From Mytilus trossulus (lineage: Eukaryota): a stretch of 64,000 bases of DNA. Under the pieces are notes generated by a model. The model saw only the letters and a list, made by a program, of their open reading frames with translations. It was not told the origin of the DNA and searched no databases. The position numbers were made by a program, and so were the translations under genes. The stretch lies in contig NC_086374.1 in the NCBI RefSeq assembly GCF_036588685.1, forward strand, positions 45,880,001-45,944,000, given 5' to 3'. Position 1 is the first letter of the stretch. Each line of letters begins with the position of its first letter. Shown here piece after piece: positions 1,937-48,473 of this stretch.

Positions 1937-4432
1937 TTATGTGAATTTCGGGTTTGACTCTATATCGACTTGCGGTGGTGCCTTAGTGACATCATTATGA
2001 TGGTAATCAACTTCTGGTTTATTGTTGACCTTAGTGCGGGGTCTTTTTACTCGCCTATTTCTTTTTGGCGATGTATCTCTCATTTCGGATGCAGTGTCTC
2101 TAACAAGCTCTTTATTTATACTTTGTGTTCTTAATAATCCCGATTGTGGCATATCCGCAGTACTTAAAATTTCTGTTTGTAACAATCCTTTCATTCTAAT
2201 TTGTTCTTTCATTTTACTTTCCATTGCTTCTCTGTCTTCCTCTGAAGCATATGTAGTTTGTAACGAATGTATTTTGAAAAAGTAACGAACATTAGGTTGC
2301 TTCGTAACTTGGTTCGAGTAGCTGATTTCTTTCTCTGGAAAAAATAATGTTCCTGGAGATTTAAATGTACGTCGTATACAACACATGCAAAAGATGTCTT
2401 CTAGAAACAAGACAACCGAAAGTTGCTGCAGTCGCCATTGTGCGTATCTATTTTCCAGAACCACTGCGCATGTTTGTGACATCATTGCTATAAGTGAATT
2501 TAACAGCAAGACGTAGGTCAGTAATGCAAACACAATGTAAAGTGCTATTGCTAAACCAGGAATTCTTGCTTCATTTAAAACGCCAAAATCATCCAAACCT
2601 AACATAAGCTTAAACATAGTGAGCATAGCACCTCCAAAACTACTGAAGTGTTCATTTACGGCATTATGGTAAGAGGGCGTTTTTTGTTCTGCATCCATTG
2701 ACCCAACAAAAGCGGCATAAATGCCTGCTGTAAATGCAAAAAACATGAACGAAATGAACACTGCAAATCGCAAAAGATCTCCAATAATGACTCTTTTTAT
2801 CATTTCTGTGAAAAAACTAAAAAGCCGAAAAGCGCGTAAGAAAAATACGGAAAACCACCAACCAGCAATTACGGCTAGTATTAAAGCAATATTATCATGT
2901 TTTTCCTTTGCAATTGTCATAAAGAAGTCAACAAATAAACACACAGAAAACACAATTAAAAAGAATATATATTCTAAGTTATGTAAAATATATCGAAACG
3001 CGTTCGGTCGCCTGGCTTTCGCAATCAGTAGCCATATAACTATAAGGCAATATGCTAGACCTCCAAGAAAAAGACTTATCCAGGAAACAACAGAGGCAAA
3101 CGTTCGAGATGATACTGAAACATGATTGCCCACAGTAGTTGTGTTTGGCGTAGTTTCGAGGGCATATAATTCAGACCTAATGACGAGTTCTGCAGTCATT
3201 GATACGGTCATCAACAAATGGATAAAGCCCCACGACAAATAAAAATACTTGAATGTTTGCCACTTTTCAAGAATTATATTCTTAACTGGTATGGTTTCAA
3301 TTATTCTAAAAGCAGATTGGTTCTGAAAGTCGTAATCAAACATCATTTCTAAAATTGATTCCGTTTTTGGATTATCAAACTGGCCACATTTAACATGGTT
3401 GCAATTCGTGTTTGATGCAATTGTTATACGAGGCACGCCAACAACATTTCTGGCAACTTTTTTATGTTTAGAGCCTACATCCGCATTTCTAATAGTGGCT
3501 ACATGTTGGTTAGCAACCGTGTCAATTTCGGTAATGTCGTATAATTTGACGTCAAAAAGGCCGTCGTGGGTGCTAACAAACGAGTAGACGTTTTCTAGGT
3601 TTATTATATATTGGAAAATTTCCACCACTCCAAGTTTAGCGGAAAGTTGTAATGGTGTCAAGCAATCGTTGTTTTCCAAAACCCACATATTCAACTCGTC
3701 TTTCAAGATTATGTCGGTATCCTTACTTTGAAATCGACCATTAATTGAAATATCCTTTTGTTTTATCTTATCTGTGAGATATGTTAACATTTTTATCACG
3801 CTGTCAGATTTGTTTGGATAAATGGCAGCATATTTCACTAGAGAATGGAAAACGGTGTCTCCGGAACTATTTTTTGCACGCATTTTAGGTTTTTTATCCA
3901 ATAAAATTTCCATGATGTTTTCATCTAAAGTCAAAGCTGCTACATGTAAAGGTAACTCTCCCATCATAACCGTATTTGTAAAAATACTGCCAGTTGCCTT
4001 TGTCTTCAGAATAGACTTCATGTGTTTTGAATCTGAAAGCAGTAGTTTAGTTACTTCATAATCACGTTTTGTTATCGCGATATGAAGTGGTGTTTGTCCT
4101 TTGTAATTTTTTGAATCTCCTCTTGAAAAAGTCAGTAATTCGGGACACAGTTTAACTATTTTTCTTATCATTTCCGAATGATCCGAGTATTTAACAGCGA
4201 TATGAAGTAAAGTTTCACTTTCTTCTTCGTCTTCAAAAAAATGCTTAATGTAATTTTTTAAAGGACTATTTTTCACGTCATTTATTCTGTCATCTATCAT
4301 GTCGAGAAGATTATGTACGTTTTCCTTAGACAAATTTGAATTGGTTTTTATTTTAGACGACAAGATATGTAAAAAATCACTAGGTTGTTTTTCAAGCATT
4401 TCGACGAAGTATTGTCGTTCGTCTTCCTCCAT
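1937..4432 (-). CDS. TRPV: TRPV-family (TRPV5/6-like) Ca2+-permeable cation channel, paralog A, 831 aa, single coding exon
   Basis: Ankyrin repeats (ETLLHIAV, YKGQTPLHIAI, MGELPLHVAA, GDTVFHSLV, LTPLQLSAKLG), LYDITEID linker, six hydrophobic segments, pore FSSFGGAMLTMFKLMLGLDD, S6 YVLLLNSLIAMMSQT, TRP box WRLQ. Splice acceptor ttttatcag|G at 4461/4460, and an in-frame TGA 27 nt upstream of the ATG supports this start. Confidence 0.95.
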   Translation of the reverse strand: MEEDERQYFVEMLEKQPSDFLHILSSKIKTNSNLSKENVHNLLDMIDDRINDVKNSPLKNYIKHFFEDEEESETLLHIAVKYSDHSEMIRKIVKLCPELLTFSRGDSKNYKGQTPLHIAITKRDYEVTKLLLSDSKHMKSILKTKATGSIFTNTVMMGELPLHVAALTLDENIMEILLDKKPKMRAKNSSGDTVFHSLVKYAAIYPNKSDSVIKMLTYLTDKIKQKDISINGRFQSKDTDIILKDELNMWVLENNDCLTPLQLSAKLGVVEIFQYIINLENVYSFVSTHDGLFDVKLYDITEIDTVANQHVATIRNADVGSKHKKVARNVVGVPRITIASNTNCNHVKCGQFDNPKTESILEMMFDYDFQNQSAFRIIETIPVKNIILEKWQTFKYFYLSWGFIHLLMTVSMTAELVIRSELYALETTPNTTTVGNHVSVSSRTFASVVSWISLFLGGLAYCLIVIWLLIAKARRPNAFRYILHNLEYIFFLIVFSVCLFVDFFMTIAKEKHDNIALILAVIAGWWFSVFFLRAFRLFSFFTEMIKRVIIGDLLRFAVFISFMFFAFTAGIYAAFVGSMDAEQKTPSYHNAVNEHFSSFGGAMLTMFKLMLGLDDFGVLNEARIPGLAIALYIVFALLTYVLLLNSLIAMMSQTCAVVLENRYAQWRLQQLSVVLFLEDIFCMCCIRRTFKSPGTLFFPEKEISYSNQVTKQPNVRYFFKIHSLQTTYASEEDREAMESKMKEQIRMKGLLQTEILSTADMPQSGLLRTQSINKELVRDTASEMRDTSPKRNRRVKRPRTKVNNKPEVDYHHNDVTKAPPQVDIESNPKFT

Positions 4433-11828: not shown

Positions 11829-11908
11829 GTATCAACTTTACTAAATACTATTTCTAGGCATATCAATAAATACTAAATACTATATATAGCCGATAGCCAA
11901 GCAATACT
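11829..11908 (-). repeat. 80-bp terminal direct repeat of the YR retroelement (outer copy; inner copy 12512-12591)
   Basis: gtatcaactttactaaatac...gatagcc(a/c)agcaatact, 79/80 identical between the copies. Confidence 0.95.
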
Positions 11909-12624
11909 GGTGGACCCCATAGTTTATTAATATAAATAAGATATATATATATACAATATACATGAAGCATAAGTATCAATGCACTATAGATAAACTTTCA
12001 TAAGGAATTCTTTAGAAAAACCAGTAAATTGTGTTCAAAAATATGGGCTCTGTCATCAACGATCCCACCGGCCAGGAAAAGCTAACAAAAACGAGTTACC
12101 TCGGTTCAAACTAAATTTAAACTGCAGTCAAAAGACTACATTTTAAATAAAGTGGAAAATAATGGAACCCAAATGCTCGGAAGACCGTCTCGAGAGGTAC
12201 ACTTGGACTGTATATAACTGACTAAATATACTATATGAAATAATAAATCAAGTTTCTTTATAGTAAAATATAAATCCCTACTAAATACAAATTAGAATAA
12301 CAATTCAATTGAAAATGAAACTTATTTCACTGTTGTCCAGTCTGATTCTTGGCTAGAAGTGACCAACAAGGGAAAATATTCCCGCTAAATATCAGTATCA
12401 CCTGATACATATATGTATATACGTGTACATAAGTACCCGTATCAATAGTATTCACTAGTACCGTTATTACAATAATTTCCCACTATACTATCGAACTGTT
12501 GGAAATTATAAGTATCAACTTTACTAAATACTATTTCTAGGCATATCAATAAATACTAAATACTATATATAGCCGATAGCCCAGCAATACTTAAACCACA
12601 AAGAAAGGGCGGGCAAAGTTCAGT

Positions 12625-13639
12625 TTACAACCCAAGTGTTTGTGAAACTGACATTCTCTTTTCAAATGTATCATCTATGTACCCGTCTTTACTTGTGTCG
12701 GACTTCCACCTCCCGTGTCTCTTAATGCACCTTTCGTTCACATCAAACTGGGCATTAGCGGTAGCACCGCCTGAACGAAGAGAATGTAAACCTAGATTGT
12801 GATTCGGGGCGACAATTCTAATTCTCTTTTGACAATATTCTCTTTAGCTGATGTGTAACTCATCTTCTTATTCTTATGTATCAATTTTTCTATACCCTTA
12901 TATCTAAATAAAGGTATAAAAACAAATAAATCAGATTTCTCATCTAGACTAGCTAACTTAATATATCTATTGTACATTTTGAATGGACAAGCTAAAGTTC
13001 TACCTATTGAAATCAACATTTTATTACCCTGTCGGTATTGATCAGTTTTACTACGTGAAATGTGTATCTCTAAATAATCATCGAAAACTGTGATATCTTT
13101 ACATTTTAAGGAGGTAAGCTCATCGTAACGCAAAAACCCTGAATAACCTATCAAAATCATGGTCAAATCACGAACTATCAATAAATCTTCTGACCTTTCG
13201 TACAATGAACATAAAGCAATAAGAATATTATTGTTAATTGGATCCTTTTTGACAACTGGTCTACCGTTCAAACGTTTTACAGATTCGGTCAGTGATTTAA
13301 CATACGAATTGTTAGTAGGATCGTTGAAGCCATTAAGTTCATGGGCCCATTTGATAGAATATACAGCGGAGTCTATAACAGTGGGAGAACAATGTTTATC
13401 AATAAGATATGTCAAATAAAGCGCGACATGAACTGGGTTAGCAGGTAATTCTGACATGTTGTGCTCATTTATAAAAGTTTTTCATCGTTTGAAACCATAA
13501 AAGTACTTTTTACTGGTATTTTCGGCTTTGGATTCCACAACAAAGCTGGACATCGTGTTGGCTCAATTCCTAAGTTTGTTGTCCGGGGATATACCACTGT
13601 TGTCTATGGCATCCTGGACGTTTTGTTTCAATCTTAAAC
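12625..13639 (-). pseudogene. Tyrosine recombinase (phage-integrase family) of the DIRS-order element, disrupted
   Basis: N-terminal SKAENTSKKYFYGFKR*K. Catalytic set FLRYDE (R), SKTDQ (K), then after a frameshift near 12800 LHSLRSGGAT (HxxR), RHGRWKSD and DGYID (Y), ending SQTLGL* at 12625. Two in-frame stops occur upstream of 13457. Confidence 0.93.
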
Positions 13640-13695
13640 CTGCAAATAATATTGATCACATTAAAATTCTAGTTTGATTGCTAACATATGAAATC

Positions 13696-15560
13696 TCAGA
13701 ACACGTTCACCAAATACGCCATGTTTACCACTACCTTTAACGACTGAGTGCAGGTTTGGTAAAAAAGTTTTCCCTTTATAAATTTGATGAGATAGCTCGA
13801 TGCGAATAGCAACGGCCAAAATGGAGCTGATATCCATTCCGGTATAACAAGCGTGCTGTTGGCCTTATCGTTTTCTATTTTGCGCACGACCATGGAAATG
13901 AGTGTTCCAGTTTTGACTGAATGCGTCAACTGCTTCCGTACCGGGACACCATATTTTAGAATTAAATCGTTCACGCTTTGTATTATAGTGTTTTGCGAAT
14001 CTGTCTATTGTATATGGACCCCATAAGCTATTGGTTTCATCAAATATATCAGAATGAATAGCCCAATCATCGTGATCAGTGTGTCGACTGAGCTTGTCTG
14101 CGTGTGTGTTGTTCTCTCTCGGAACCCATTGTGTAATTATGTTTATATTGCTATCAACACACGTTTGTTTAATGTCAATAGCTATATCTTGTAATTTCTG
14201 TTTCTTACTTCCTACTCTCAATATGTGAGGTACGTTTTGATTGTCTGTATAAATTTTGACGGTTTTGTCACTAAATGTATTATCAAAAGTTTGTACAAAC
14301 CTATTGACGCATTCTAATTCGCGCCATGTGGAACTTTCGTTCCTTTTTCGTTCTGTCCAGTTACCGGAATTTCCTTGCAAAAATGTTTTGCATTCAAATC
14401 TGAGGCTAAATAACCACCAAAGCCTACATCTGAGGCGTCACAAAACATTTCTATATCAACAATATCTAACTGATCGACTTTATTAATGTCGACTCCAGCA
14501 TTATTGAGCTTTTGCAATGAAATAGACCAAAAATGTATTTCATTAATTGCTTTTTTGCAAATCTTGACTGGTGCATCCCAACTTGCTCTACTCATGATAC
14601 AATCATAAAGGTATCTAGTGTTCAATCTAACTAAGTCACCAATGACTATCTGCATAGATATCAACTGACCAACAATACTAGCTAAAAATCTAGATCCAAA
14701 TAATTCTACCCCTTCGTTTGTTTCTTCTATTAAAAATCTAATCTTTTTCTCAGTTTTCATAATTCTATCTTCATTAACAAATATGTTATCTATATTTGTA
14801 TCCCAAGTATACCCTAGCCATTTTAATCTCTGGCTTGGTAACCAAAAACACTTCTCATGTGCAATCAAAAAACCCACATTCTATAGTTTATATTTAACTA
14901 TTTGACTGCTCTCTGTGCATTTCTAAAAATTGCTATCTCCACCCAACCCATCGTCTAGAAACATTATTATCCTTTTGCCTTCAGATCGAAAATGCTTTAA
15001 GTACTTTTGTAAATATGTACCCTGCAGTTGATATACCGAAAGGAAGTACATTGAAAACAAAATATCTCGTATTACCATCAAAATTCCAAGCAAAACCTAA
15101 AAAGTTCTGTGAATATCTGAGATATCCAAATGATGATAAGCAGATCTAATATCGAAACTAATAAATAATCTCCTTTTTGAAAGAGATATCTTGCTATCTT
15201 AGTATCCTCGTACTTGTATCTAAATTTAAACAGATGTGGATTCAAACGCCTTTAATCTAGTACTAATCTTGGTTTATCTTCATTAAATGCTACTGTAAGC
15301 GGATTTATTACAATTGGTTTCGAATAAACCTCAGAAATGCACCTTTTTTGAAGAAGCTTGTGAATTTCTTCAACAACAAATTCTGCATTGTTTAAAGATG
15401 ATCTGTTATTTTTCAAATGCTTAACCTCTAGTTCCATTTTCAATTGTAACTTATACCCGTTTTCAATAACTAGTAGTAATAGCTTTCCATTCATGTAATT
15501 TTGACTTCAGTTTACCTACTGGTGAGACAGGTATATCAACTTCTAGTAAAAAGTTATCAC
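13696..15560 (-). pseudogene. pol of the DIRS-order element: reverse transcriptase, RNase H and DAM-type methyltransferase-like domain, frameshifted
   Basis: RT: INPLTVA..KPRLVLD, FDIRSAYHHLDI, FVFNVLPFGISTAGYIFTK, IMFLDDGLG (~14940-14965), WLGYTWD. RNase H: FCDASDVGFGG, SSTWRELE, IYTDNQ, QWVPRENNTHADKLSR. MT: DDWAI, WGPYTIDRFA, FNSKIWCPGTEAVDAFSQNW, TLVIPEWISAPFWPLL. Confidence 0.92.
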
Positions 15561-15579
15561 CAATGACACTTGGTTTCGA

Positions 15580-16250
15580 TTACGTAATTTCTATCGTATG
15601 TTTATCTTCTACTATGTTTACATTTGCACTGAATGAATTTTCATCTTGACCAATATAACATTTTTTCATATTATAATACAAATTAGTACTTTCAAAATTT
15701 TTAAATATACTTATCTTATCTTTCTTCTCCGGACAATCATTCGCCCAATGGCCCTTGTTGACACAATTGAAACATCTCCCTGTTCTCCAAGTTGGGGTTG
15801 GATCTCTCTCTTTGGTGGAATAGGGCACCTTCCTGACCGTCTTCGTTGACTTTTTCAGCTTGTCTGACTTGCTCCTACGTTCAACTCTATTTTGCACTTT
15901 TATCATTTTCTTTTCATCTTCGGAGTCGTCTGCAATTGGGTTAGTTGTGTACTGCTTCACGACTCTCCAACCCAATTCGGATGAATCAACGAGTTTAATG
16001 ATAAATCTGGTCCGTCTAACTGTGATTTTGCCTCCGTTAACTTCGTCAGGACTTTAACCTCGTGCTTGTACTGGTATTCGTTCCCCTTCCGTTGGAAAGT
16101 ATAATTCTCCGACAAAGTCTCCTCAATCTTGAAAATCTGGGATTGACTGATATCTCGTTGAGACTGCTGGATATTTCCCTGGAATGTGGATAGCCTGTTA
16201 TCTATCAAAGCGGTGATTTGGTTAAGGTTATCTTGTTGTAAGGCAGATAC
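15580..16250 (-). pseudogene. gag-like ORF of the DIRS-order element with CCHC zinc knuckle
   Basis: FQRKGNEYQYKH, DSSELGWRVVKQY..NPIADDSEDEKK, CFNCVNKGHWANDC (CX2CX4HX4C). A frameshift or deletion occurs near 16000. Confidence 0.85.
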
Positions 16251-16676
16251 ACACGGTAATCATTTTCGTTGGTTGCAGTCGAATCTCGCTGCATCCAATC
16301 AACAAAAAAAGCGCCGATAATATGATCACGTGTAAATGTAGAAAGTGTATTACATGTAAGTAAACAGTTGTCACGTGCTTATTGTGCAACAAGTCTTAAC
16401 ATCCATAATAAACATACGACTATATTTAGTGACAATTAGAATGTTTTTAATTATCTGAAAGAAGTTCATGTGTATGTTTCTTGCGCATATGCACGAATGT
16501 CAACGTATATTTTCGTTTCCTGCTTTACCAAGTATGTAGAATTTAGACGCTTCCGTGTTTTTACATATCGAAGAGTTAAAAATTTCTCAATAATAATGTA
16601 TTCGGAACGAGCGTGACTTTAATCTACCGATAGATGGCGCAACATTGTTATCACAAATGTTGGCCATTAGTTTTCT

Positions 16677-16851
16677 CGGTTGAATTGTTTTACATTGTCA
16701 TATATTGGCCTTTTATAGCTGACTATGCGGTATGGGCTTCGCTCATTGTTGAAGGTCGTGCGGTGACCTATAGTTGTTAATGTGTGTGTCATTTTGCTCT
16801 CTTGTGGACAGTTGTCCCATTTGCAATCATACCACATCTTCTTTTTTATAT
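16677..16851 (-). repeat. Abundant ~170-bp dispersed repeat (SINE/Helitron-like; other copies ~50591-50757 plus, ~59217-59392, ~48105-48220 minus, partial ~34690-34775)
   Basis: Reverse complement of gaagatgtggtatgattgccaatgagaca...ttcaacaatgagcaaagcccataccgcatagtcagctataaaag seen at 50591-50757. Confidence 0.85.
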
Positions 16852-19800
16852 TAATCTGCCAAGGATGGAGAGGAGGGAAGTGGATCGTAACCCTTGGCCA
16901 GCGAATATGTGAAGATTCATATATATCTTCATAACTGTTTTCTACATATTTCTAACATTTATCACCACGACATTGAACACTACCTTGCAAACTTTACAAA
17001 TAAAATTTAAAAAAATCATAATACCATAAAGACATTTTTGCTGCACATTATTGGATTTATGTAACAATTTTTTTCAGGTTAACAAATTTTAACTTATGTC
17101 ATATCATATTGTTTCATGCAAATTTGCCCAAAATAAAAGTGATGTACAAAACTTAAATTAATGAAAACGTGATGTAGAAAATTGAGCAGCTAAATAAAAG
17201 CCACATTAGTATACCGCTGTTCTAATAGACTCATAAATCGATTGAGGAAAAAAACAAATCCGGGCTACATCCTAAAACTCAGAGAAACACATCAAATATA
17301 AGAATAGAACTACGACACAACAGAAACACAACACTAAAATGTAACATACACAGAAACGAACTATAATATAACAATGGCAATATTCATGACTTGGGACAGG
17401 ACATTTAAGAAACAAATTATCGGTTAAACCTGGTTTTGTGGCTAGGCAAACCTCCCGCTTTTATGGCAATGTTATTTTTTTTTGTATACGAAGTGATGTT
17501 TGATTTTTATTGTAAAGCTGAACTTGTAACTTAAAAATCAGTTATTGACGTTGGAAGTGTATTTTAACTGCTCTTTTTGTTATTTGTCACTCATATATCA
17601 TGTAGGACGAGACATCGAGCATTAAGCTTTTTCTCTGATTTTAAGACGTACTAAATATGAGTAAAAAGAGATATTTGTTAGTGTGCATATATAAAGGGAA
17701 ATGCAATTCACTTAATATTATAGAGATCTAGAGATCATTAATCGATTTTCAACAACAACCAAATGCCTATACCGTTGTCAAGATTTTAAACTAACATCGT
17801 GTCTTCATAAACTTTCAATAAACCGATGCAATGGAGATACCCGCGTAAAATCTGCCATTTGCATAAAATTCTTTCAAATAAAACTTTGAACAGACAAATC
17901 GCAGACGCTTTTTATGGCCTTCAACAAATGCATCAAAATACGACACGTTTAATTGAATTACCAGTCATTTTTTTTATCAATTGATTAACAAATAGTATAG
18001 AGCCAATGACAATACATGGTCCAATTAAAATGTTTTTCATTACGACATGATATTGATTTTTAAAGGCGAAATATATTCGAGTTAACAAATACTATAAGTA
18101 TCAAATTCTTAGTGATAGGAGACACCACTCAGGTGTCTCGGTCTGAAATGAATTCCGTTGCTAACCCATTCGCACAAAGGTGTTATTTGTGTTAAATACC
18201 TACAACAACAAAAAACGGCAACCATTATTATGGACCAGGTTTTGAATGTTTTTTATTTGTTTTTATAATAAGCATAATGATTGTTTTTCTTGCTAAGAAG
18301 CATTTTGACAACCAAATAGCCAATATAAACCTTAAATGAAAGATGGGTTTTATTTTTTTTATTTTAAGGTAACAAAGAAATATATTTATATCCGGACTAT
18401 TGGAATATTTAATTGTCACTCTTTCCAATTCATTGAGAAAAAACTTGAAAGTTGTCAACGCATACGGTTTTTTTAGTACATTAAAAGTGCATCGAAATAT
18501 ATCAAAGGGAAATTCAAACTCATAAGTCCAAATAAACTGACAACTCAATGACTTAAAACGAAAAGATAAACAGACAAAAAACAGTACACAAAACACAAAA
18601 CATAACACAGAAAACTTAAAACAAAGCTTAACACAAAACTAGGGTTAATCTGATGTGCTCCGGAATAGTTAGCAGATGCTACTTCAGATGTGGCACCCTC
18701 GTGTTGCTTATATAAGTACAAACCATTTGAAAAGTTTAATTCGGTAGGTCACATTTAGGGAAACGAGGAAGGGATTGTTTAAAGCGGAACTCATCTCTTT
18801 TGTCGTAAATTTCTGTTTTCCACCTACAATCATTGTCAATTTCTATAAGTAAATCAAGATATGAGAACAACTTAACTGTTTATGTTGTATCTTTTATCTA
18901 AAGTTCGATGGAATAGATACGACAGTGATACATGTACGAGTGAAAAATCAACCATTCACATAAAATAAGTCAGGTATTAGTCTTTGTAAGAATTTGGCAA
19001 TTAGGCAAAACATGACAGAAAAAAGCCTGCCAGCAGTACCATCTTATTAAAAAGTAAGCCTCATTCAAAGTTACAGCATTTGTTTAACGCGTGTCTGGTA
19101 ATTTCAGAAATCTCTAGATATGTTTTCATTATATTGATAGTAAATGTTAGCTACCTTTAATTAGTGATTTCTAGTACATTTCAACCAAATCATATCTTGA
19201 AATATCAAAACAGGAAAAGCAACATAATGTTATATCCGTGCACCATCAAAATATTGAACTTAAATTTATGAAAACTTTTTCGTTTATTATGTTTTTGGCA
19301 CTGCTTGATTCTTTGGCATATTTTCACTCAGAACCTGAACGATCCAACGAAGTTAATTTTAACATTTTTTTTTTATATATACATGTATATCCCACTGCAT
19401 TTACAACACTGCTCTACCCTTTTCATTCCAATCGTCAATGTGTGCTGCTCATAATGCCAAGCATCTTCACACAAAAAGGATGATTTAAAAAACATCATTT
19501 TTAACTTTGAGAAAATATAATTTTCAATTATTTTCATATGGAATAGTAGTACTATATGGTAGTAAGTTTAATGCTGCATTTCATATTATGAATATAACAT
19601 ACCGTAGCAGAACATTTGAATTTCTTTTGAGTATTTTGGTCATGGATTGTATTTAAAATTAATGGTGCATTTTGCACTGAGCTATTAAATTTTAGGACCG
19701 ATACCAAGAACTTATAGATTTCTGGAAATTTTTTAAAGATCCTTTGTTAGGATAAATCCAATACATTATTTCAAGTTCTTATTCAATATTTACACTAATA

Positions 19801-29737: not shown

Positions 29738-32494
29738 TCATTCACTTGCATGAGGATATGGCTCTATATCAACGTGAGGATATCCATTCGGAATAAAAAG
29801 TTCTTTTCTCTCAGGGCAACTGTTAAAATGACCATGAACATGCAATTTATTTTCGACGGGAGTAAGTAATCCATCTGACCGAGTATAATCACTCGCCACT
29901 GAGGCAACAGACGGCGATTTTCTATTTTCCTTTTCATGCATGTTTTCCGAATGGTATCGTCGCCTTCTGCTCTGAGGCGATTTTTCTGACTTGATCAAAT
30001 CTGGTTCAGAACCTAACTTTGCAGCCGACTGTTTTGTTATTATTTCCTCTTCTTCCCTCACTCTACTGAGATGCTTATTTCTTCTGGGTGATTTCTTTCG
30101 TTGTGTACTACTTACATCATCAATGCTTATAGATGGCGTTTCCATTTCCGGTCGGTTCATTCTACGGGTGGTCCGTCTACGAATGGACGGTGCATATCCT
30201 GTTTTCAAAAGATAATTTAATGTTCCTTGATCAGACCGTAACGATCCGTCCATTCGGATTGGCTCTTTTTCTTTCTCTGTCTTTTTCATAGCTTCTCGAT
30301 CTTCCTCTGAGGCATAGTTTGTTTGTAACGAATGTATTTTTAAAAAGTATCGACTGTAAATTTTATTTTGCTTTGAAACTGGGTCAAATCCGCGGATTTC
30401 TTTCTCTGTTCCCGGAGATCCAAATATATGTCGAATGCAAGATAAACAAAAGAGATCTTCTAGGAATAACACGACAGAAAGTTGTTGCAGTCGCCATTGT
30501 GGGTATCTATCTTCAAGAACCACTGCGCATGTCTGTGACATCATGGCTATAAGTGAATTTATTAACAGCACGTAAGTAAGCAACGCAAACACTATGTAAA
30601 GCGCTATTGCTAAACCTGGAATTCTGGCTTGATTTAAAACTCCAAAATCATCCAAACCTAACATTAGTTTAAACATAGTTAACATGGCACCTCCAAAACT
30701 ACTAAAGTGTTCAGTTACAGCTTCCTCATATGCAGGAGTTTGCTGATCTAAACTAACAGCACCGACAAAAACGGCATACATGCCTGCTGTAAATGCAAAC
30801 AACATGAATGAAATAATGACTGAAAATCGCAAAAGATCTCCTATAATGACTCTTCGAATCATTTCTGTGAAAAAACTAAATAGCCGGATAGCACGTAAGA
30901 AAAATACGGAAAACCACCAACCAGCAATTACGGCTAGTATCAAAGCAATATTGTCGTGTGTGCTTTTGGTTCTTGTCATGAAAAAGTCAACAAATAAACT
31001 TACAGAAAACGCAATTAAAAAAAATACGTATCCTAAGTTGTGAAAAATATATCGAAGTGTATTCGGTCTCCTTTTCTTTGCAATCAGCAACAAAAGAACC
31101 ATTAAGCAATAGACACCACCACCAAGAACGACACTCATCCAGGATACAAATTCAGCAAAAGTCCTAGATGCGTCCGGGACAGTAATTTCGAGTGTACTTG
31201 TGTTTGAAGCAGTTTTGAGGGCATATAACTCGGACCTGATGACTATTTCCATAGTTAAAAACACGGTCATTAACACATGCAGAAAGCCCCATATGAAATA
31301 AATGTACCTTAACTTCTGCCATTTTTCAAGAATTATATTCTTTACTGGTATCGTTTCAATTATTCTGAAGGCAGAATGACTCTGGTAGTCGAAATCAAAC
31401 ATCATTTCTAAAATTGACTCAGTTTCTGGATTATCAAACTGACTGCATTTAAAAGGGTTGCAATTCGTTTTTGACTTGATACTTGTACGAGAAACACCGT
31501 CAATATTTCTGGAAACCTTTTTACTTCCGTAGCCTTCGTTTGCGGTAGTAGTTGATGCCACGTGGTGATTAGCAACCGTATCAATTTCGGTGATATCATA
31601 CAATTTTACGTCAAACAGTCCGTCGTGTGTGCTTACAAATGAGTAGACGTTTTCAAGATTAATTATAAATTGAAAAATTTCAACAACTCCTAGTTTAGCG
31701 GATAGTTGCAATGGCGTTAGAAATTCGTCGTTTTTCAAAAACCAGACATATGAATCTTCTTTTAAGAATATGTCGGTATCAATGCCTTGGTATCGACCAT
31801 GACTTGAATTACTCTCTCTCATCCTTTCTATGAGGTATGTAAACATGTGAATAACATTGTCAGTTTTGTTTGGATAAACAGCAGCGTATTTTACCAGAGA
31901 ATGTAAAACAGTGTCCCCACAACTGTTTTCAGAATGCATATTAGCACCATGATCTAACAAGAGATCCACGATGGTTTCGTTAAAAGTTAATGCCGCAACA
32001 CTTAATGGTAGTTCACCCATCATTACCGTATTAGCAAATATTCGGCCAACTGCTGGTGTATTAATCATAGTTAATTTCGTCCGGCTTGAATACTGCTTTC
32101 TCTCCGATTCTAAATTCGACGACGAAAGCAATAATTCTGTTACATTATCATCGCCTCTAGTTATTGCGATATGAAGTGGTGTTTGTCCTTGGTAGTTCTC
32201 GGACGTTTCCCTTGCCAGAGACAGCAAGTCTGGACATAAATCAATTATTCTCTTTATAATATCAAAATCATCTTCGTATTTTACGGCCATATGAAGTAAA
32301 GTCTCACTTTTATCTTCACCTTCGCGGTATTGTTTCATGCAGTGTAAAGGACTACATTTGTTTTCCATTATAGTGAGCAGTTCGCGGACTTTTTCGTTTG
32401 AATTTGCTTTTATTCCGGACGAAAGTTCTTGTAAAAATCTATCAGGATTCGTATCCAGTAGTGTGATGAAATGTCGTCGTGTATTTTTATCCAT
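29738..32494 (-). CDS. TRPV: TRPV-family (TRPV5/6-like) cation channel, paralog B, ~918 aa from MDKNTRRH, single coding exon
   Basis: Same motif set as paralog A (YQGQTPLHIAI, MGELPLSVAA, LYDITEID, MLGLDD pore, YVLLINSLIAMMSQT, WRLQ). The ORF track starts at 32587, but an acceptor tttacag|G at 32536/32535 and alignment with the paralog A start favour the ATG at 32494. Confidence 0.95.
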   Translation of the reverse strand: MDKNTRRHFITLLDTNPDRFLQELSSGIKANSNEKVRELLTIMENKCSPLHCMKQYREGEDKSETLLHMAVKYEDDFDIIKRIIDLCPDLLSLARETSENYQGQTPLHIAITRGDDNVTELLLSSSNLESERKQYSSRTKLTMINTPAVGRIFANTVMMGELPLSVAALTFNETIVDLLLDHGANMHSENSCGDTVLHSLVKYAAVYPNKTDNVIHMFTYLIERMRESNSSHGRYQGIDTDIFLKEDSYVWFLKNDEFLTPLQLSAKLGVVEIFQFIINLENVYSFVSTHDGLFDVKLYDITEIDTVANHHVASTTTANEGYGSKKVSRNIDGVSRTSIKSKTNCNPFKCSQFDNPETESILEMMFDFDYQSHSAFRIIETIPVKNIILEKWQKLRYIYFIWGFLHVLMTVFLTMEIVIRSELYALKTASNTSTLEITVPDASRTFAEFVSWMSVVLGGGVYCLMVLLLLIAKKRRPNTLRYIFHNLGYVFFLIAFSVSLFVDFFMTRTKSTHDNIALILAVIAGWWFSVFFLRAIRLFSFFTEMIRRVIIGDLLRFSVIISFMLFAFTAGMYAVFVGAVSLDQQTPAYEEAVTEHFSSFGGAMLTMFKLMLGLDDFGVLNQARIPGLAIALYIVFALLTYVLLINSLIAMMSQTCAVVLEDRYPQWRLQQLSVVLFLEDLFCLSCIRHIFGSPGTEKEIRGFDPVSKQNKIYSRYFLKIHSLQTNYASEEDREAMKKTEKEKEPIRMDGSLRSDQGTLNYLLKTGYAPSIRRRTTRRMNRPEMETPSISIDDVSSTQRKKSPRRNKHLSRVREEEEIITKQSAAKLGSEPDLIKSEKSPQSRRRRYHSENMHEKENRKSPSVASVASDYTRSDGLLTPVENKLHVHGHFNSCPERKELFIPNGYPHVDIEPYPHASE

Positions 32495-35800: not shown

Positions 35801-37873
35801 GCTGGTCATGTATATATAATCTAAATAAATACTGTTTGTACTATCTTTGTAATGCACAGTGACCCGACCAATGTCACGAATTAACCATAGTATACATTTG
35901 TAAAGATTGATTTTTACGACAAAAAAGATATTTTGGCTTAATAACCTTGGCAAATGTAATATTTGATTTAATCCGCATTTAAAAAAAAAATCAAAATGAG
36001 CTGCAACTATTATGCGAGATCTTTAATTATCATATATTTCCAAACTAAAGTCGGCCTTGTTTAAACAGACAATATATTGCAGAAGAAATGTTTTTAAAGA
36101 TTGTCAATTCAATAAATTACATACGATCTTTGAGATTACAGACAACTCAATTGTTATTCTTGTCAGGTTTATGAATAAGGACAATCAAAGAATTAAAAAA
36201 TATATGTCAGCAATTTTTTTCAAACGTACAACAAAAGAATTTATTAATAATATACAGAATGTTTTTGATAGCCATCGTTTTTCAAAACAATATGTAAACA
36301 TTTTCAGAACCTTTTGCCCGCATCGGTACTGGTTAAAGAATGGAAAAATTGTTTTACTGAAATTTGCTATTTTGACAATGCTTGTTTTGTTATTAAATAA
36401 ACATAACGTATACGGTATAGTTAACTTTAAAAGATCACAGCCTGACAGAATGGGAAACAATTTAAAAAAGGGAAATAAAAACGACTATTTTTTTAACCTA
36501 TAGCATGAAATCAAACAGACCTAGAATAGTCCGCTTACACTAGGTCGCTATCTATTTAAATATATGTTAATATCGGGTTATATGACCGTCAGAAGTCTTC
36601 GGATGTCATCTCAATTGTTAGTTAGATGGCGTCTAGACTAACGTACACACACAGTCCTGATATATATTATATAATCCATGCATATTGTTTATTGTTCATT
36701 GTAGACTTTTTGCAAGTTGGATACCCGTTTTACTAGGTTATAAGGCAAATATGAGAATTTAAGTCAAACCAGTAAATAAGAATTTGACAGCTTGCTAACT
36801 CAGAAAATCCCCTTCTGAATAGTGTTACATGACTTACTATAAAGCTATTAAAGCGCGCACTGCAATGTTTTTAACATAAACCTATGGAAAAATGTAGCAA
36901 ATGAATAAGATAGCAAACTATTTCAAATATATGAAATCACTTTGAAGCAGCTACATATATGGGAAATGTGACAAGTTTTTTTTCCGTCTGTCATGATCAG
37001 AACACGAACAAACTATTAATTGCACAATGTGATTGCAATCCTTAAAGTTATATTTCTATCACCCAACAAACTGATGCTGTGTAGAAGCGATTGCTCAAGT
37101 TACTTATATTGCATCGGTTATTTCAGACTTTAGTGATAATCAAAATATGATGTGTTTAAAGAGTTAATGTTTTTCGATTTTTGATTATCAACGAGTACAA
37201 TATTATATTCAAAATCGATGATCAACCGAACAAAGGCAGCTGTTTGCAATTATCACTTAACCATCGAATGCTGTCAAATACAAGAGTTACGTGATGCGTA
37301 AATAATACTCGATGCAATACATGATTGACAAGCAGAAAAAAATTCTTTCCGTGATACCAAAGATGACATCGTGCATGACATTCGAAAGAAAATGATGGTA
37401 TTCGTCAAAAGAACAAAAGGCAAAGAAGTTGTATAGATCAAGATCCGTAGTAGTTATGTACATTTGCAAAAGAGTAAACATTCAGATGACATTAATATTT
37501 CCAACAGTCACAGTCAATACAACTATACGGTCAATAACCAACACCTTTAATGTGTGATGATGAAAATGATTTAATAGTGAGAAATACCATAAATAGCACA
37601 AAGAGATCATGATACACTTTTATGAAAATACATTTCAAGCATAGAACTAAATGTTTCCATGCAATATTGTCGATAAATCCCATAATATTTACAAAACAAG
37701 ACTTGCTTGATTTTCTTGCTGTGTTGAATACCCATTGGTGGTTTTCGGCAGTTTTTTTATCTTTGGTTGGGTTTTCGTCTCTTACGCATATTTCCTATTT
37801 TCTATTCTCAATTTTATTTTTACATCTAGATGTGAGAAATAAGAAAACCAACACTAAACAGTATATACTGATT

Positions 37874-38570
37874 CTGTGTAAAGTCCCGAATGACACATAG
37901 AACAGGCCATGCTATACTAAAGTAACTGTGTAAAATCCCGAATGACACATAGAACAGGCCATGCTATACTAAAGTAACTGTGTAAAGTCCCAACGCAAAC
38001 ACAGAACAGACCATGCTATACTAAAGTAACTTTGTAAAGTCCCAAAGCAAACACAGAACAGGCCATGCTATACTAAAGTAACTGTGTAAAGTCCCAAAGC
38101 AAACACAGAACAGACCATGCTATACTAAAGTAACTTTGTAAAGTCCCAAAGCAAACACAGAACAGGCCATGCTATACTAAAGTAACTGTGTAAAATCCCA
38201 AAGCAAACACAGAACAGGCCATGCTATACTAAAGTAACTGTGTAAAGTCCCAAAGCAAACACAGAACAGACCATGCTATACTAAAGTAACTTTGTAAAGT
38301 CCCAAAGCAAACACAGAACAGACCATGCTATACTAAAGTAACTTTGTAAAGTCCCAAAGCAAACACAGAACAGACCATGATGTTTCTACATATTAAATCA
38401 CGAAGCAATCACACAACTGACCATGCTGTATCATGAAGCAAACACATGTGGAACAGACCATAATTCTGTATTTGTGTAAAATCGCGAAGGAAATACAGAA
38501 CAGGTCATGCTGATGTGTAAAATTCTTAAACAATCATATTACAGACCATGTTGTATCTGTGTAAGATATC
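37874..38570 (+). repeat. 52-bp tandem repeat (~9.7 near-identical units to ~38379) with a degenerate tail of related shorter units
   Basis: Unit gtaaagtcccaaagcaaacacagaacaggccatgctatactaaagtaactgt. catgctatac recurs at 37908, 37960, 38012 and onward. Confidence 0.95.
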
Positions 38571-38827: not shown

Positions 38828-38995
38828 ATAACTATGATTATGGTATATTTTTTTTTTAGATATATCTTAATATTTCGACATATGGCAATCTATGATATAT
38901 ACTACACCTTATGTGTAGCTCACAAGATTAAACAAGCATCATACACATATAACGATGGAAATTCTGTGCGTACTATGAAATTTCTCTAAAATTCA

Positions 38996-39568
38996 GCATG
39001 GTATACTCTGTGTTTGCTTTGAGATTTTACACAGCTACAACAAGCTCTGTTTTGTAACTGCTTCGGGATTTTACAGAGATACAGAAAGGTATGTTCTATG
39101 ACTGCTTCGGGATTTTACACAGCTACAATAAGGTCTGTTCTGTGATTGCTCCGAGATTTTACAGAGATATAGCAGGGTCTGTTCTGTGATTGCTTTGGGA
39201 TTTTACCGAGATACTACATGGTTCATTCTGTGATTGCTTTGGGATTTTACACAGCTACAACAAGGTATTTTCTGTGATTGCTGCGGGGTTTCACATGGAT
39301 ACAACATGGTTCATTTTGTGATTGCTTTGGGATTTTACACAGCTACGTTTACAGCAAGGTCTGTTCTGTGATTGCTGCGGGGTTTCACATAGATACAACA
39401 TGGTTAATTCTGTGATTGCTTTGGGATTTTACACAGCTACAACAAGGTCTGTTCTGAGTGTGATTGCTGCTGGATTTCACATGGATACAGCATGGTCTGT
39501 TCCGTGATAGCTTTGGGATTTCACTCAGATACATCAAGTTCTGTTCTGTGACTGCTTTAGTATTTTAC
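38996..39568 (-). repeat. 44-bp tandem repeat (~13 diverged units), reverse complement related to the 52-bp array
   Basis: Unit ctgtgattgctttgggattttacacagctacaacaaggtctgtt. Unit starts at 39140, 39184, 39228 and 39272. Confidence 0.9.
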
Positions 39569-40563
39569 CCCCTGAAATTCTAAATGTTTTGCCAAAAACA
39601 TCTAACGTGTCATCCTGGGGTATTATAATGATGCATAATCTCAGATGTAGTTTAAACTATATCTTCAAAGACAAATCAACCAAAAACAATCAATTCATTT
39701 GCCTTATAGTTTTTGAATAGTCGTCACAACAAAAATAATTCTACATTTCAAAAGTCAGATTCTTTAATGAGTGTATTGCTTGTTCCTACACAATCCCGTT
39801 GATAGGTTGATTCTTCATCCAAAGTCTGAGTTTTCTACAAGAAAATAGAAAAAGTACAAATAAGTGAAATGATGCGACTTGTTTGAACATATATTGGTCT
39901 CATACATATGAATATTTGTGTTTTTTAAGGTCAAACGCTTGAGGTGTAAAGATGTATAGATTATCACCGCAGATGTAAACTCCGGTACTGGAGATGTACA
40001 AGACTAGCGCTACGGTAGCAGTAATGAGTGAGGTATACCGAACTAACTGATACACGTGCTGAAGATTCCTGTTCATTACCTTACACTATAGCTAGTACAG
40101 GATTGTTTTTGTGTTGTTTTACTACATTTTTACTTTAGGACCTTCACTATTTGTTCTATTCAGTTTTGAGTGTTCGTTAATGGGATTAATCGCAGTTTTC
40201 CTGTTTCCGATGTGGTTTTTTAAAATTATTATGATAAAAAATTCTCGTCATATTCATTGTATCGAATATTGTTTGTCTTGTTGATGGTCTTTGGTCAATA
40301 CGTATTACGATTTCGACACATTTTTCTGGTGCCATATCGACGAACACAGAAGACTGATTTAGTAATGGATGTTTTGTATGATAAGAAACTTTAATTTGTA
40401 ATCGTTTATTTTCAACATCGAAATATAAATTAATTAAGTAACATAATTGGTGCGCATTTCCAAATTTTACATCTTAAGATGAATAAATACGTGTAAGGGG
40501 CTTACCAATCGAAACCTCATATAATATCAACTTAATGAAATGTAATCAATTATTATATATGAA

Positions 40564-41165
40564 AGGAGTAGGTCCAGTAAGACCCCTTTTTGGCCCCAAA
40601 ATATGGCAGTTTTACAAAATTGTTAAAATGTATACTTTTAGTTATTTATTGGACAGTAGAATGCTTCTGCTACATAAATATGGGCCGTTTTTGACAATAC
40701 GATGTACATATATCGAGTACTAGCACCATAACGTTATGCTAAATTACCGAAACCTTCAAAATTCTAGCATTTTGGTTAAATTTTAGACGGTTTCCGTGTA
40801 AAACGAAAGTGGCCGCTTTCGTGTTCATCCAAAATATTTAAATGTAAGTTGTATTTGATGATAATACATAACATATATAAAGGTTGAGGATGAACACGGA
40901 TGCAGCCACTTTCATTTTTGACAAAAAAACATCTTAAAAGTTACATTTTTCAGCATATTTGGTATATTTTTCAGCATATTTGGTATATTTTTCATATTTG
41001 AGCTTGAATCGAAGCGTTTTTAATGACTAAATTAGTTAAAATCTTTCACATAGATGAATTGAATAAAAAAAAATAGGCATTTAAGTAATTAAAAAGTGGT
41101 CAACATCTTTCGTCAGATGAACCTGAAATATGAGGCAAAAATCGGTCCTTACCGGACCTACTCCT
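40564..41165 (+). mobile_element. ~600-bp TIR MITE (possibly Kolobok-like), copy 1
   Basis: TIRs aggagtaggtccagtaag / cttaccggacctactcct. Internal inverted repeat gaaagtggccgc..gtgttcatcc / ggatgaacac..gcagccactttc (~40805-40913). Confidence 0.85.
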
Positions 41166-41779
41166 TTAGAATTAATTATTCATAATTATCTTTACAAATT
41201 TTCAAGAATGGCTTCGATTTAGAAGATTTCTTTTTATAATATACTTACTTCCGTTACAGGGTCACCGTCTGAATCTGAATAGAAGTGAGCTGAATCAAAA
41301 GTAATGTCCGGCGAATGTCTTCCTTTTATCCAAAATATTATAATGCTGAGGACAAACACTGCTATAAAAATACCAACCAGAACGACACTCAATGTGTTGT
41401 TAGCCACGATTACACGAAAATTGTCCAGTTCTGTATCCACTGTCATATTTTTCATAACTTATCAGCTGGACACTCTAAATCAAAATATGATATATTTTAG
41501 TCATCACACAATTCTAATGCTGAGTTATATTATGTTAATGACATTTCGAAATGATAGACAACGTCCCTATGTTAGATCCTTGGTATTTTCATGAGCAGCT
41601 GCGAACATTTAATTTCCTTGACCTTTAGTGTATATTATTGTTTTTTTGTACTTGTATCATTGGTGTCTACCATATATGGTTCAGCTCTTTTCGTTAACTG
41701 ATTTTTATTGTGCTTTCATTTACCTTTTTATTTCAATTTTGAAGAAAAAGAGTGATAATAACTTGTTAATCCTCGACCC

Positions 41780-44700
41780 ATGTTTACGTGTCTTTACAAA
41801 ATCAGAAAACTTTCAAGATGTTCACGTGTCTTTACCAAGTCAGAAACCTCGTCATATGTTCACGTGTCTCTACAAAAGAAACCTCGTCATATATTCACAT
41901 GTCTTTACCAAGTCAGAAACCTCGTCATATATTCACGTGTCTTTACCATGTCAGAAACCTCGTCTAATGTTCCCGTGTCTTTACCAAGTCAGAAACCTCG
42001 TCATATGTTCACGTGTCTTTACCAAGTCAGAAACCTCGTCATATGTTCACATGTCTTTACCAAGTCAGAAACCTCGTCATATGTTCACGTGTCTCTACAA
42101 AAGAAACCTCGTCATATATTCACATGTCTTTACCAAGTCAGAAACCTCGTCATATATTCACGTGTCTTTACCAAGTCAGAAACCTCGTCTAATGTTCCCG
42201 TGTCTTTACCAAGTCAGAAACCTCGTCATATGTTCACGTGTCTTTACCAAGTCAGAAACCTCGTCTAATGTTCACGTGTCTTTACCAAATCAGAAAACTT
42301 TCAAGATGTTCACGTGTCTTTACCAAGTCAGAAACCTCGTCATATATTCACGTGTCTTTACCAAGTCAGAAACCTCGTCATATGTTCACGTGTCTCTACA
42401 AAAGAAACCTCGTCATATGTTCACATGTCTTTACCAAGTCAGAAACCTCGTCATATATTCACGTGTCTTTACCAAGTCAGAAACCTCGTCTAATGTTCCC
42501 GTGTCTTTACCAAGTCAGAAACCTCGTCTAATGTTCACGTGTCTTTACCAAATCAGAAAACTTTCAAGATGTTCACGTTTCTTTACCAAGTCAGAAACCT
42601 CGTCATATGTTCACATGTCTTTACCAAGTCAGAAACTTCGTCATATGTTCACGTGTCTTTACCAAGTCAGAAACCTCGTCATATGTTCACGTGTCTTTAC
42701 CAAGTCAGAAACCTCGTCATATATTCACGTGTCTTTACCAAGTCAGAAACCTCGTCTAATGTTCACGTGTCTTTACCAAGTCAGAAACCTCGTCTAATGT
42801 TCACGTGTCTTTACCAAATCAGAAAACTTTCAAGATGTTCACGTTTCTTTACCAAGTCAGAAACCTCGTCATATGTTCACATGTCTTTACCAAGTCAGAA
42901 ACTTCGTCATATGTTCACGTGTCTTTACCAAGTCAGAAACCTCGTCATATGTTCACGTGTCTTTACCAAGTCAGAAACCTCGTCATATATTCACGTGTCT
43001 TTACCAAGTCAGAAACCTCGTCTAATGTTCACGTGTCTTTACCAAGTCAGAAACCTCGTCATAATTATGTTCACGTGTCTTTACCAAGTCAGAAACCTCG
43101 TCATATGTTCACATGTCTTTACCAAGTCAGGAACCTCGTCATATATTCACGTGTCTTTACCAAGTCAGAAACCTCGTCATATATTCACGTGTCTTTACCA
43201 AGTCAGAAACTTCGTCATATGTTCACGTGTCTTTACCAAGTCAGAAACCTCGTCATATGTTCACGTGTCTTTACCAAGCCAGAAACCTCGTCTAATGTTC
43301 ACGTGTCTTTACCAAGTCAGAAACCTCGTCTAATGTTCACGTGTCTTTACCAAATCAGAAAACTTTCAAGATGTTCACGTTTCTTTACCAAGTCAGAAAC
43401 CTCGTCATATGTTCACATGTCTTTACCAAGTCAGAAACTTCGTCATATGTTCACGTGTCTTTACCAAGTCAGAAACCTCGTCATATGTTCACGTGTCTTT
43501 ACCAAGTCAGAAACCTCGTCATATGTTCACGTGTCTCTACCAAAGAAACCTCGTCATATATTCGCGTGTCTTTACCAAGTCAGAAACCTCGTCTAATGTT
43601 CACGTGTCTTTACCAAGTCAGAAACCTCGTCATAATTATGTTCACGTGTCTTTACCAAGTCAGAAACCTCGTCATATGTTCACATGTCTTTACCAAGTCA
43701 GGAACCTCGTCATATGTTCACGTGTCTTTACCAAGTCAGAAACCTCGTCATATATTCACGTGTCTTTACCAAGTCAGAAACCTCGTCATATGTTCACGTG
43801 TCTTTACCAAGTCAGAAACCTCGTCTAATGTTCTATGTCTTTACCAAGTTAGAAACCTCGTCATATGTTCACGTGTCTTTACCAAGTCAGAAACCTCGTC
43901 ATATGTTCACGTGTCTTTACCAAGCCAGAAACCTCGTCTAATGTTCACGTGTCTTTACCAAGTCAGAAACCTCGTCTAATGTTCACGTGTCTTTACCAAA
44001 TCAGAAAACTTTCAAGATGTTCACGTTTCTTTACCAAGTCAGAAACCTCGTCATATGTTCACATGTCTTTACCAAGTCAGAAACTTCGTCATATGTTCAC
44101 GTGTCTTTACCAAGTCAGAAACCTCGTCATATGTTCACGTGTCTTTACCAAGTCAGAAACCTCGTCATATGTTCACGTGTCTCTACCAAAGAAACCTCGT
44201 CATATATTCGCGTGTCTTTACCAAGTCAGAAACCTCGTCTAATGTTCACGTGTCTTTACCAAGTCAGAAACCTCGTCATAATTATGTTCACGTGTCTTTA
44301 CCAAGTCAGAAACCTCGTCATATGTTCACATGTCTTTACCAAGTCAGGAACCTCGTCATATGTTCACGTGTCTTTACCAAGTCAGAAACCTCGTCATATA
44401 TTCACGTGTCTTTACCAAGTCAGAAACCTCGTCATATGTTCACGTGTCTTTACCAAGTCAGAAACCTCGTCTAATGTTCTATGTCTTTACCAAGTTAGAA
44501 ACCTCGTCATATGTTCACGTGTCTTTACCAAGTCAGAAACCTCGTCATATGTTCACATGTCTTTACCAAGTCAGAAACTTCGTCATATGTTCACGTGTCT
44601 TTACCAAGTCAGAAACCTCGTCATATGTTCACGTGTCTTTACCAAGTCAGAAACCTCGTCTAATGTTCACGTGTCTTTACCAAATCAGAAAACTTTCAAG

Positions 44701-46538: not shown

Positions 46539-46945
46539 AAATGCCATTTGTAGCGCAATCGCACATACAATTGCCAAGAATTTATGTGTTTGAATACATT
46601 TTCACGAAAACGCAACGTCGAGCAATGAACCGCAAAACTGAGGTCATAATAGATCTAGTTTAATCCTTGTAGAATGGTACACCGGACGATAATTTTGTAT
46701 ATCAAATATGCGTGGCACTTTATCTTTTCTCGAGATACTGACAGTTTAAAGAAAATTAAGATTGGCCAATTATATAGTATCATCGAAAAAGTGACATCAA
46801 GACCAGATAATGTACATCTTACCCTTGAATAATATCGTAGTCACCACAAATAAAAGACAGATGGTCAATTACTTATAGTATTTGAGAAACCGACCTAATC
46901 AATAAAAACACGTAATGTTGATTGTTAAATCCTAAAATTAGGTAG

Positions 46946-47532
46946 AAGAGTAGGTCCGGTAAGGGTCGATTTTGGTCTCAAATTTCAGATTGATCTACCG
47001 AAAGATTTTGGACTCGTTTTAAACACTTAGGTGTCTATTGCAATTGATTCAATTATTTTATGTGAAAAATTTTAACTGATTTGATTGAGTCATTAAAAAC
47101 GCTCTGATTCAATTTTAAATATGGAAAATCTATCAAGTGTGCCAAAAAAACGTCACTTTTCAGATATTTTTTGTCAAAAATGAAAGTGGCCGCATCCGTG
47201 TTCATCCTAACCCTTGATATATGTTATGTATTATCATCAAATACAACTTACATTTCAATTTTATAAATGAACACGAATGCGGCCACTTTCAATTAAGACG
47301 GAAACCGTCTAAAATTTAACTAAAACGCTAAAATTTTGAACATTTCAATAATTTAGCATGACTTAATGATGCTATAACCCCGATATATGTGTATTGTGTT
47401 GTCAAAAACAGTCCATAATTATGTAGCAGAAGCATTCTACTTTCTAGTATATAGCTTAAAGATTACATTTTCACAATTTTGTAAAACTGCTATATTTTGG
47501 GGCCAAAAAGGGGTCTTACTGATCCTACTCCT
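46946..47532 (-). mobile_element. ~590-bp TIR MITE, copy 2, inverted relative to copy 1
   Basis: Begins aagagtaggtccggtaag and ends ggggccaaaaaggggtcttactgatcctactcct, the reverse complement of the copy 1 start. Same internal hairpin (~47183-47290). Confidence 0.85.
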
Positions 47533-48473
47533 TTCGGGCTCGCTGTTTCTAACAGCTATAGGTAAGCACATAGCCACTGTATGTCTCGTATTGTGTGTCT
47601 TTCTGTTATATCATAAAAATGTCAACTACATTGAGTGAATGGAAAATATTTCAAGGATAAGACGACAACAATACAACATCATCTGACCAAAGGACATCTG
47701 TATTTAACGTCCTTACAAACCATGCATTAATATAAAACAACTATCCTTGTACACGAGGAGTGCCAATATGAGAAAGAATTGTTTATAATTCATTAGCCAT
47801 TTGTTATCAGACTTTTAGTTCACTTCATGATAATTCTGTACTTCTTAATGTTGCATTTTATTTTTCGATTGCTAAATTGTTTTTATATTGAGCGTGGTCT
47901 TGTCGATCCTTTTTCTTGAAAACTTTCTTAAATGTATTGTTTTACATCCAATCATCATGTTGACTTTGCTATAGGATATGTATGTACCGACGGTTTGTGC
48001 ATTTTGTATTGTTTAATGGTTAGAAAAGCGGTATCTACAAATCCATTTTGATATGAAGACTTACCAACGATTATAAATCATAAATCTTGTTTCTCTTTTG
48101 GCTTTTGCTAATTGTTGAAAGCCGTACGTTGACTTATAGTTGTTAACCTTCTACGTCATTTGGTCTCTGGTATAGATTTGTCTCATTGGCAATCTCCTAT
48201 TACCTTCTTATTTTCATATAACTCATCAAATAGCAATATAAGAAACTAGCAAATATGAAATGCCAATCCTTTATAGCACCTTACTTCATCCGTGATGCGT
48301 TCGGTTTGTTTTACTTAGGCTTCAGTTCTCGGTTAATTGATTTGACGTACTAAGTTATTCGTCTCTTCTTCATTTTTTTCTTGACCATTGGACGTTCTAT
48401 TCCTTTTCGACTTATGAGTATTACTACCCTTAGCATTGAACCTTAAAAATTGTTTTCAAAAGTTTCAAACCGA

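Follow-up and report, generated by a model that had tools for sequence, protein, structure and literature searches.

The DNA analysed here, termed the window, is a stretch of 64,000 nucleotides from Mytilus trossulus (contig NC_086374.1), and a retroelement on its minus strand raises the question of how a recombinase encoded behind gag and pol comes to be expressed. A sequence-only reading had proposed that pol acts as an intron, with unspliced RNA giving Gag-Pol and spliced RNA giving a direct fusion of Gag to the tyrosine recombinase (YR). This proposal was compared with related genomic copies, assembled contigs, homologous proteins and the literature.

The element and its relatives

The element runs in the order gag with a CCHC knuckle, pol (RT, RNase H, methyltransferase), YR and the repeats B1-A2-B2. 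Its features are as follows, a slash marking the cut in splice motifs.

15715..16250, minus strand: gag remnant, without 5' end and A1, up to the observed donor (from sequence and family copies)
16001..16002, minus strand: point of a 73-nt deletion in gag, where family copies hold a mid-gag phase-1 GT donor candidate, AAG/GTAT
15733..15774, minus strand: Gag CCHC zinc knuckle (Pfam PF00098)
15707..15717, minus strand: observed non-canonical donor AAG/ATAAGTAT, exon end 15715, phase 0 (joint in X1 and X2; conserved in 14 of 14 families)
15709..15710, minus strand: GT of the sequence-only reading, in phase 1 and equal to +5/+6 of the observed donor; no use of it was observed
13640..15714, minus strand: 2075-nt excised stretch with AT...AG ends, including the whole of pol (RT, RNase H and methyltransferase, broken in the window copy)
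13663-13661, minus strand: pol stop, inside the excised stretch
13640..13665, minus strand: T-rich tract and CAG acceptor
13634..13639, minus strand: Val codon and TAA, the Gag end after the observed join
12625..13639, minus strand: tyrosine recombinase frame from the acceptor, with two stops and indels in the window copy
12512..12591, minus strand: split direct repeat B1
12323..12518, minus strand: split direct repeat A2 (family copies have A1 on the 5' side of gag)
11829..11908, minus strand: split direct repeat B2, the element's 3' end

RT and RNase H are recognized in family copy L008 (PF00078, PF17917), and an RNase H remnant persists in the window. The methyltransferase behind RNase H matches PF05869 with E 3e-7 in L008 and E 0.013 in the window. 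Split direct repeats A1..B1-A2-B2, the internal ones behind YR, are present in L001, L003, L009 and others; a Gag zinc finger is present and YR lies on the same strand as gag-pol. By its structure, rather than by an RT tree, the element is classed as a PAT-like YR retrotransposon, and an excerpt of PMC4157794 warns that structure alone can mislead in placing such elements. Ngaro was rejected since it is without a methyltransferase domain, whereas the element has one, and a DIRS1-like identity since it needs inverted terminal repeats and an internal complementary region, whereas the repeats here are direct. The nearest named homologues among the matches listed are from mussels and other bivalves.

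The window copy is dead: it is 5'-truncated, without A1 and the gag start, and carries 13 indels relative to family copy L003. In better family copies gag and pol form one frame, as proposed for the unspliced RNA. A further 100 YR loci were fetched of 150 listed, and the loci with gag and pol in one frame represent 14 families, the window's included.

The junction and its donor

Both splice sites of the sequence-only reading are found on the sequence, the acceptor ...TTTGCAG/GT at 13640/13639 (phase 1 in the YR frame) and the donor A/GTATAT at 15711/15710 (phase 1 in gag), and joining them arithmetically gives the in-frame gag-YR join described. The AT-rich turn after the knuckle is likewise present (GC 0.43 at 15800-16199 vs 0.31 at 15400-15799), and over 12 families the T fraction changes across the donor site from 0.23 to 0.40.

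Contigs from 8 of 22 listed runs were compared, their kind being guessed (seven 'RNA?', one unknown) and none carrying an RNA record. In X1 and X2, representing two studies and two organism codes, one joint was seen, from 13639 to 15715, skipping 2075 nt that begin with AT and end with AG on the sense strand. The X1 record has 137 nt, of which 109 lie on 15715-15823, and the remaining 28 agree with the YR side (27, and one more base at which window and family differ); nothing therefore lies between the gag and YR sides. Thus pol is excised and the predicted acceptor is exact to the base, but the predicted donor was joined in none of the 8 runs and neither of the two pol-less copies of this element type described below. 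The joined site lies 4 nt upstream (15715/15714; 2 of 8 runs), and the proposed join would retain four more bases. The observed join is in phase 0 and reads ...K-D-K-V-stop. Its short side measures only 27 letters. No splice joints were listed in X4, X5, X7, X8, X14 and X19 (6 of 8 runs); one X14 gag contig ending exactly at the donor is a weak hint at most. The joined contigs could also derive from a transcribed pol-less copy instead of splicing; among 10 copies of the window's family in the source genome, none is pol-less.

Pol-less genomic copies do exist in two other one-frame families. L036 is complete with A1, B1, A2 and B2, is 99% identical to L035, and has A1 and A2 identical at 100%; it is joined at AAG/ from a TT start, and L079 likewise from an AT start. 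Both read Gag-Glu-stop. L036 resembles a spliced RNA that was copied back in trans. Across 10 families, searches spanning the acceptor led to five pol-less copies, and L193-L195, considered as further ones, were dropped as plain deletions or decayed.

Behind the knuckle, 73 of 88 one-frame loci, representing all 14 families, carry the donor motif AAG/WTRAGT in phase 0. Its +1 base is A in 56 loci, T in 17 and G in none, so that none of the 73 has the canonical GT at +1/+2; three of the 14 families have T. Among the 15 loci without the motif by the pattern used, two are the pol-less copies and most others have no recognisable knuckle. No background match was found in 45 kb, and codon use predicts the motif at K-I-S or K-L-S in about 0.04 per family. 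The families are related by ancestry, so these counts overstate independence. Among metagenome relatives, 12 distinct of 80 loci have a knuckle and stay free of stops for 44 codons, and 10 of the 12 carry the motif in phase 0. The peptide shadow [KQE]-[ILM]-S occurs in 29/29 homologues with a knuckle.

Donor positions were scored against the U1-type consensus, which the donor matches at 8-9 of 10 other positions, with a mismatch at +1. The T-rich tract, the YAG acceptor and a precise join are present, as for a non-canonical U2-type intron. A U12-type intron was rejected, its 5' consensus being RTATCCTT whereas the donor reads WTAAGTA. Excerpts of PMC6280755 rank non-canonical donors GC > TT > AT and report that TT and AT donors work, with the cut at +1, when U1 pairing is otherwise high. 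According to an excerpt of PMC4176328, human AT-AG and TT-AG sites are rare and some are edited. The sites in FANCC (TT), FBXO9, ETV1 and ACTR10 (AT-AG), as excerpted from these two papers, resemble the present donor in their AAG/TTAAGTA type, high U1 match and +1 cut. They are single host sites, that of ACTR10 recent, whereas the present retroelements have retained AT or TT in 14 families, and relatives from other samples have it too.

Gag and recombinase products

Each join seen in this element type uses AAG/W, and Gag ends one to three residues past it. Read on past the acceptor, the gag frame ends at codon 2 in 8 of 12 families and at codon 4 in the other 4; the background stop rate is 0.17 for codon 2 and 0.30 for codon 4 or less. 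At the protein level, the ending of four oyster RefSeq accessions is A-N-K-D-stop, in place of the A-N-K-I-S found in others; a join at AAG/ predicts such K-D-stop ends. The stop just past the acceptor, together with the oyster ends, suggests that the most likely purpose of the join is the production of free Gag. P0051, an oyster-type Gag from a contig, ends K-V-S-K-K-K-M-G-G and may have G at +1 or another join. From these joins it is considered probable that pol is removed between AAG/WTAAGTA and the AG before the recombinase, most likely by the major spliceosome, and that Gag ends 1-3 residues on.

The fusion product is a different matter. In the observed join Gag is closed by Val and a stop, contrary to the proposed Gag-YR protein, whereas conservation of YR upstream of its usual Met speaks for a fusion of some kind. 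Over the 27 codons past the acceptor the mean BLOSUM score is 0.79 in the YR frame vs -0.51 and -0.64 in the other frames; none of 12 families has stops there, and identity by codon position is 0.42/0.52/0.30, the third position being least conserved. Acceptors for this comparison were picked with the phase fixed, and an unconstrained pick gave the homologous phase-1 site in 10/14. In one family the YR frame has no Met for 63 codons. The YR frame thus appears to be under protein selection from the acceptor on, and an in-frame fusion probably exists. In the window the Met noted earlier (13457) is indeed codon 61 from the acceptor, but the 60 codons before it are not open as had been claimed, since TGA interrupts them at 13565 and 13484, and a Met already occurs at 13553; this stretch is open in 4 of 9 family copies.

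It is quite improbable that the GT at +4 is the working donor and that the spliced RNA encodes a full Gag-YR fusion, as first proposed. In 17/17 lineages this GT is present and in phase with the acceptor, but it is needed anyway as +5/+6 of the upstream U1-type site. It is weak on its own, scoring 9-15 vs 18-20, and ranks 19-98 among 59-192 GT sites (8 families scored). The reading gains from the conserved YR codons, from the family lacking an early Met, and from public gene model P0046, which has the +4 join on a basis that is not given. Use of +5 is reported for weak donors in excerpts of PMC6280755, but not at TT sites, and neither the runs nor the pol-less copies contain the join. A full Gag-YR fusion from contigs was absent among the 30, the 57 and the best 120 of 1916 protein matches listed. 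As a minor product, full Gag-YR from the +4 GT is possible.

A scan for conserved phase-1 GTs revealed another candidate donor, AAG/GTAT, at a Glu-Gly pair after codon 118 of gag. GAA-GGT is found there in 17/19 lineages (L015 represents its family; L016 has GCT), with an expectation of 0.35, and a control glycine is GGT in 6/19. The pair is absent in 11 families in which gag has its own stop (site locatable in 11 of 12), and pearl-oyster gene model P0205 joins at this site, which the window copy has lost through its deletion. On codon conservation, this canonical phase-1 site is a better candidate donor for a YR fusion than the +4 GT. Gag contigs of X1, X2 and X4 cross it unbroken. No in-frame YR join was found in the 8 runs, whose references excluded the mid-gag donor, or in pol-less copies of this type. 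A route from the mid-gag GT to a half-Gag-YR protein is tentatively favoured, on codon patterns, at a little short of an even chance; re-initiation or another route is rather unlikely, and the +4 GT giving full Gag-YR a shade more so.

Other in-frame routes were considered. Against a -1 frameshift at the join stand the lack of a slippery heptamer and, in the window's family, a stop ahead of the join in the YR frame, and this route was rejected. Inspection by eye of the one-frame families showed neither a conserved in-frame AC acceptor nor a conserved second AG acceptor. A GT donor inside pol was rejected as a general route, being confined to one family: in L022 this phase-1 GT lies 337 nt behind the main donor, and four RefSeq models (P0121, P0212, P0213, P0215) use it to join Gag and the start of pol to YR.

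Other origins of the join and known systems

Highly improbable, next, is an explanation of the joins by jumps of reverse transcriptase or by deletions at a shared AG, the motif binding U1 for another purpose or reflecting the K-I-S peptide. The joins of this element type share AG on both sides, and template switching is therefore possible for them; U1 blocks premature termination in the Copia element EVD (excerpt of PMC5580714), and the motif could similarly block early polyadenylation. However, each of the five pol-less copies, like the two contig joins, has its join point at +1 of the motif, and synonymous codons are fixed at the motif. Moreover, the motif is found in another frame where gag has its own stop. 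In 12 such families the donor sits behind that stop, and in 9 of the 12 the join, with donors picked by hand, brings YR into the pol frame. All four families with an AT donor have AC 9 nt before CAG (L063, parent of L190 and L191; L049, L058, L061, L067), and pol-less L190 and L191 have an AT-AC join that puts YR in the pol frame. This join has no shared bases, which, for the motif in itself, favours splicing over template switching.

Pol-less L192 (parent L055; related L051, L069) has a TT-AG join. This join is out of the pol frame but provides the YR frame with two upstream ATGs directly past the gag stop; had the cut fallen one base earlier, at a GT, the pol frame would be kept. L053, L056, L064, L065 and L068 have a canonical-looking G/GTAC donor in phase with the acceptor. 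Donor ends vary among GT, AT and TT inside one related group.

Editing of the +1 A to inosine in pre-mRNA, giving a GT-like donor as at three human AT-AG sites (excerpt of PMC4176328), is the least credible explanation, given the families with T at +1, one of them joined there (L036), the pairing of AT with AC in L190 and L191, and no row for A>G at L008:1534 among 40 of 123 rows listed.

Under the preferred reading, the host major spliceosome would excise pol between AAG/WTAAGTA, a conserved donor beginning with AT or TT, and the AG directly ahead of the recombinase. Unspliced RNA would provide Gag-Pol and the genomic template, and spliced RNA free Gag. The missing +1 G likely weakens the donor and leaves enough full-length RNA, the rare signal likely setting the amount of Gag relative to it, and YR would likely come from a second, in-frame splice into the same acceptor. 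That a wide PAT-like clade makes Gag-Pol, Gag and Gag-recombinase from one transcript, in a ratio tuned by a selected, conserved AT-AG or TT-AG intron, is a serious possibility that stops just below an even expectation.

Excerpts describing PAT-like elements (Pat1-like, echinoderm-form; order DIRS; PMC4157794, PMC3266345, PMC9210276, PMC6681497) agree in the zinc-knuckle Gag, the RT/RNase H/methyltransferase array, the same-strand YR and the repeats A1..B1-A2-B2 behind YR. They mention no intron or splice, whereas here gag-pol is one frame and pol is excised. Closer in expression are the Ty1/Copia elements EVD of Arabidopsis (PMC5580714) and BARE1 of barley (PMC3735527), in which, according to excerpts, optional splicing of one gag-pol frame gives a Gag-only message and excess structural protein. 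Unlike EVD and BARE1, the present element loses the whole of pol (about 2.1 kb), has a donor without GT, and retains the recombinase and terminal repeats in the RNA; such spliced RNA can therefore be retrotransposed (L036). Excerpts of PMC7192593 and PMC8547959 contain no natural splice. In the literature searched, with the 2015 YR review, Repbase and supplements outside the search, no report of a pol splice with AT-AG or TT-AG ends was found.

No account of the expression and balance of Gag, Pol and recombinase in YR retrotransposons was found in the literature searched, and exact, testable junctions are now given. Introns of the AT-AG and TT-AG kinds are known from rare, isolated examples; here a donor without G at +1 is kept across many families. 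Switching among AT-AG, TT-AG, AT-AC and GT-AG in related families forms a natural series for first-base recognition. Aligners restricted to canonical sites would miss or misplace such joins, and gene models would choose the wrong donor. If the reading is true, a mobile element keeps a 'broken' donor as an expression valve.

Other repeats are also present in the window. A short interspersed repeat lies upstream of the element (16664-16856), with further copies near 34700, 48100, 50600 and 59300. Segments 2201-4234 and 30266-32323, 28 kb apart, are related, with 72-85% identity in ungapped pieces. At 37770-38483 and 38918-39592 there are 52-nt and 44-nt tandem arrays, partly reverse complements of each other. 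A long 38-nt tandem array (41700-44500) stands between long inverted repeats (40561-41168 and 46943-47535; 78-88% complementary), possibly a foldback-type element.
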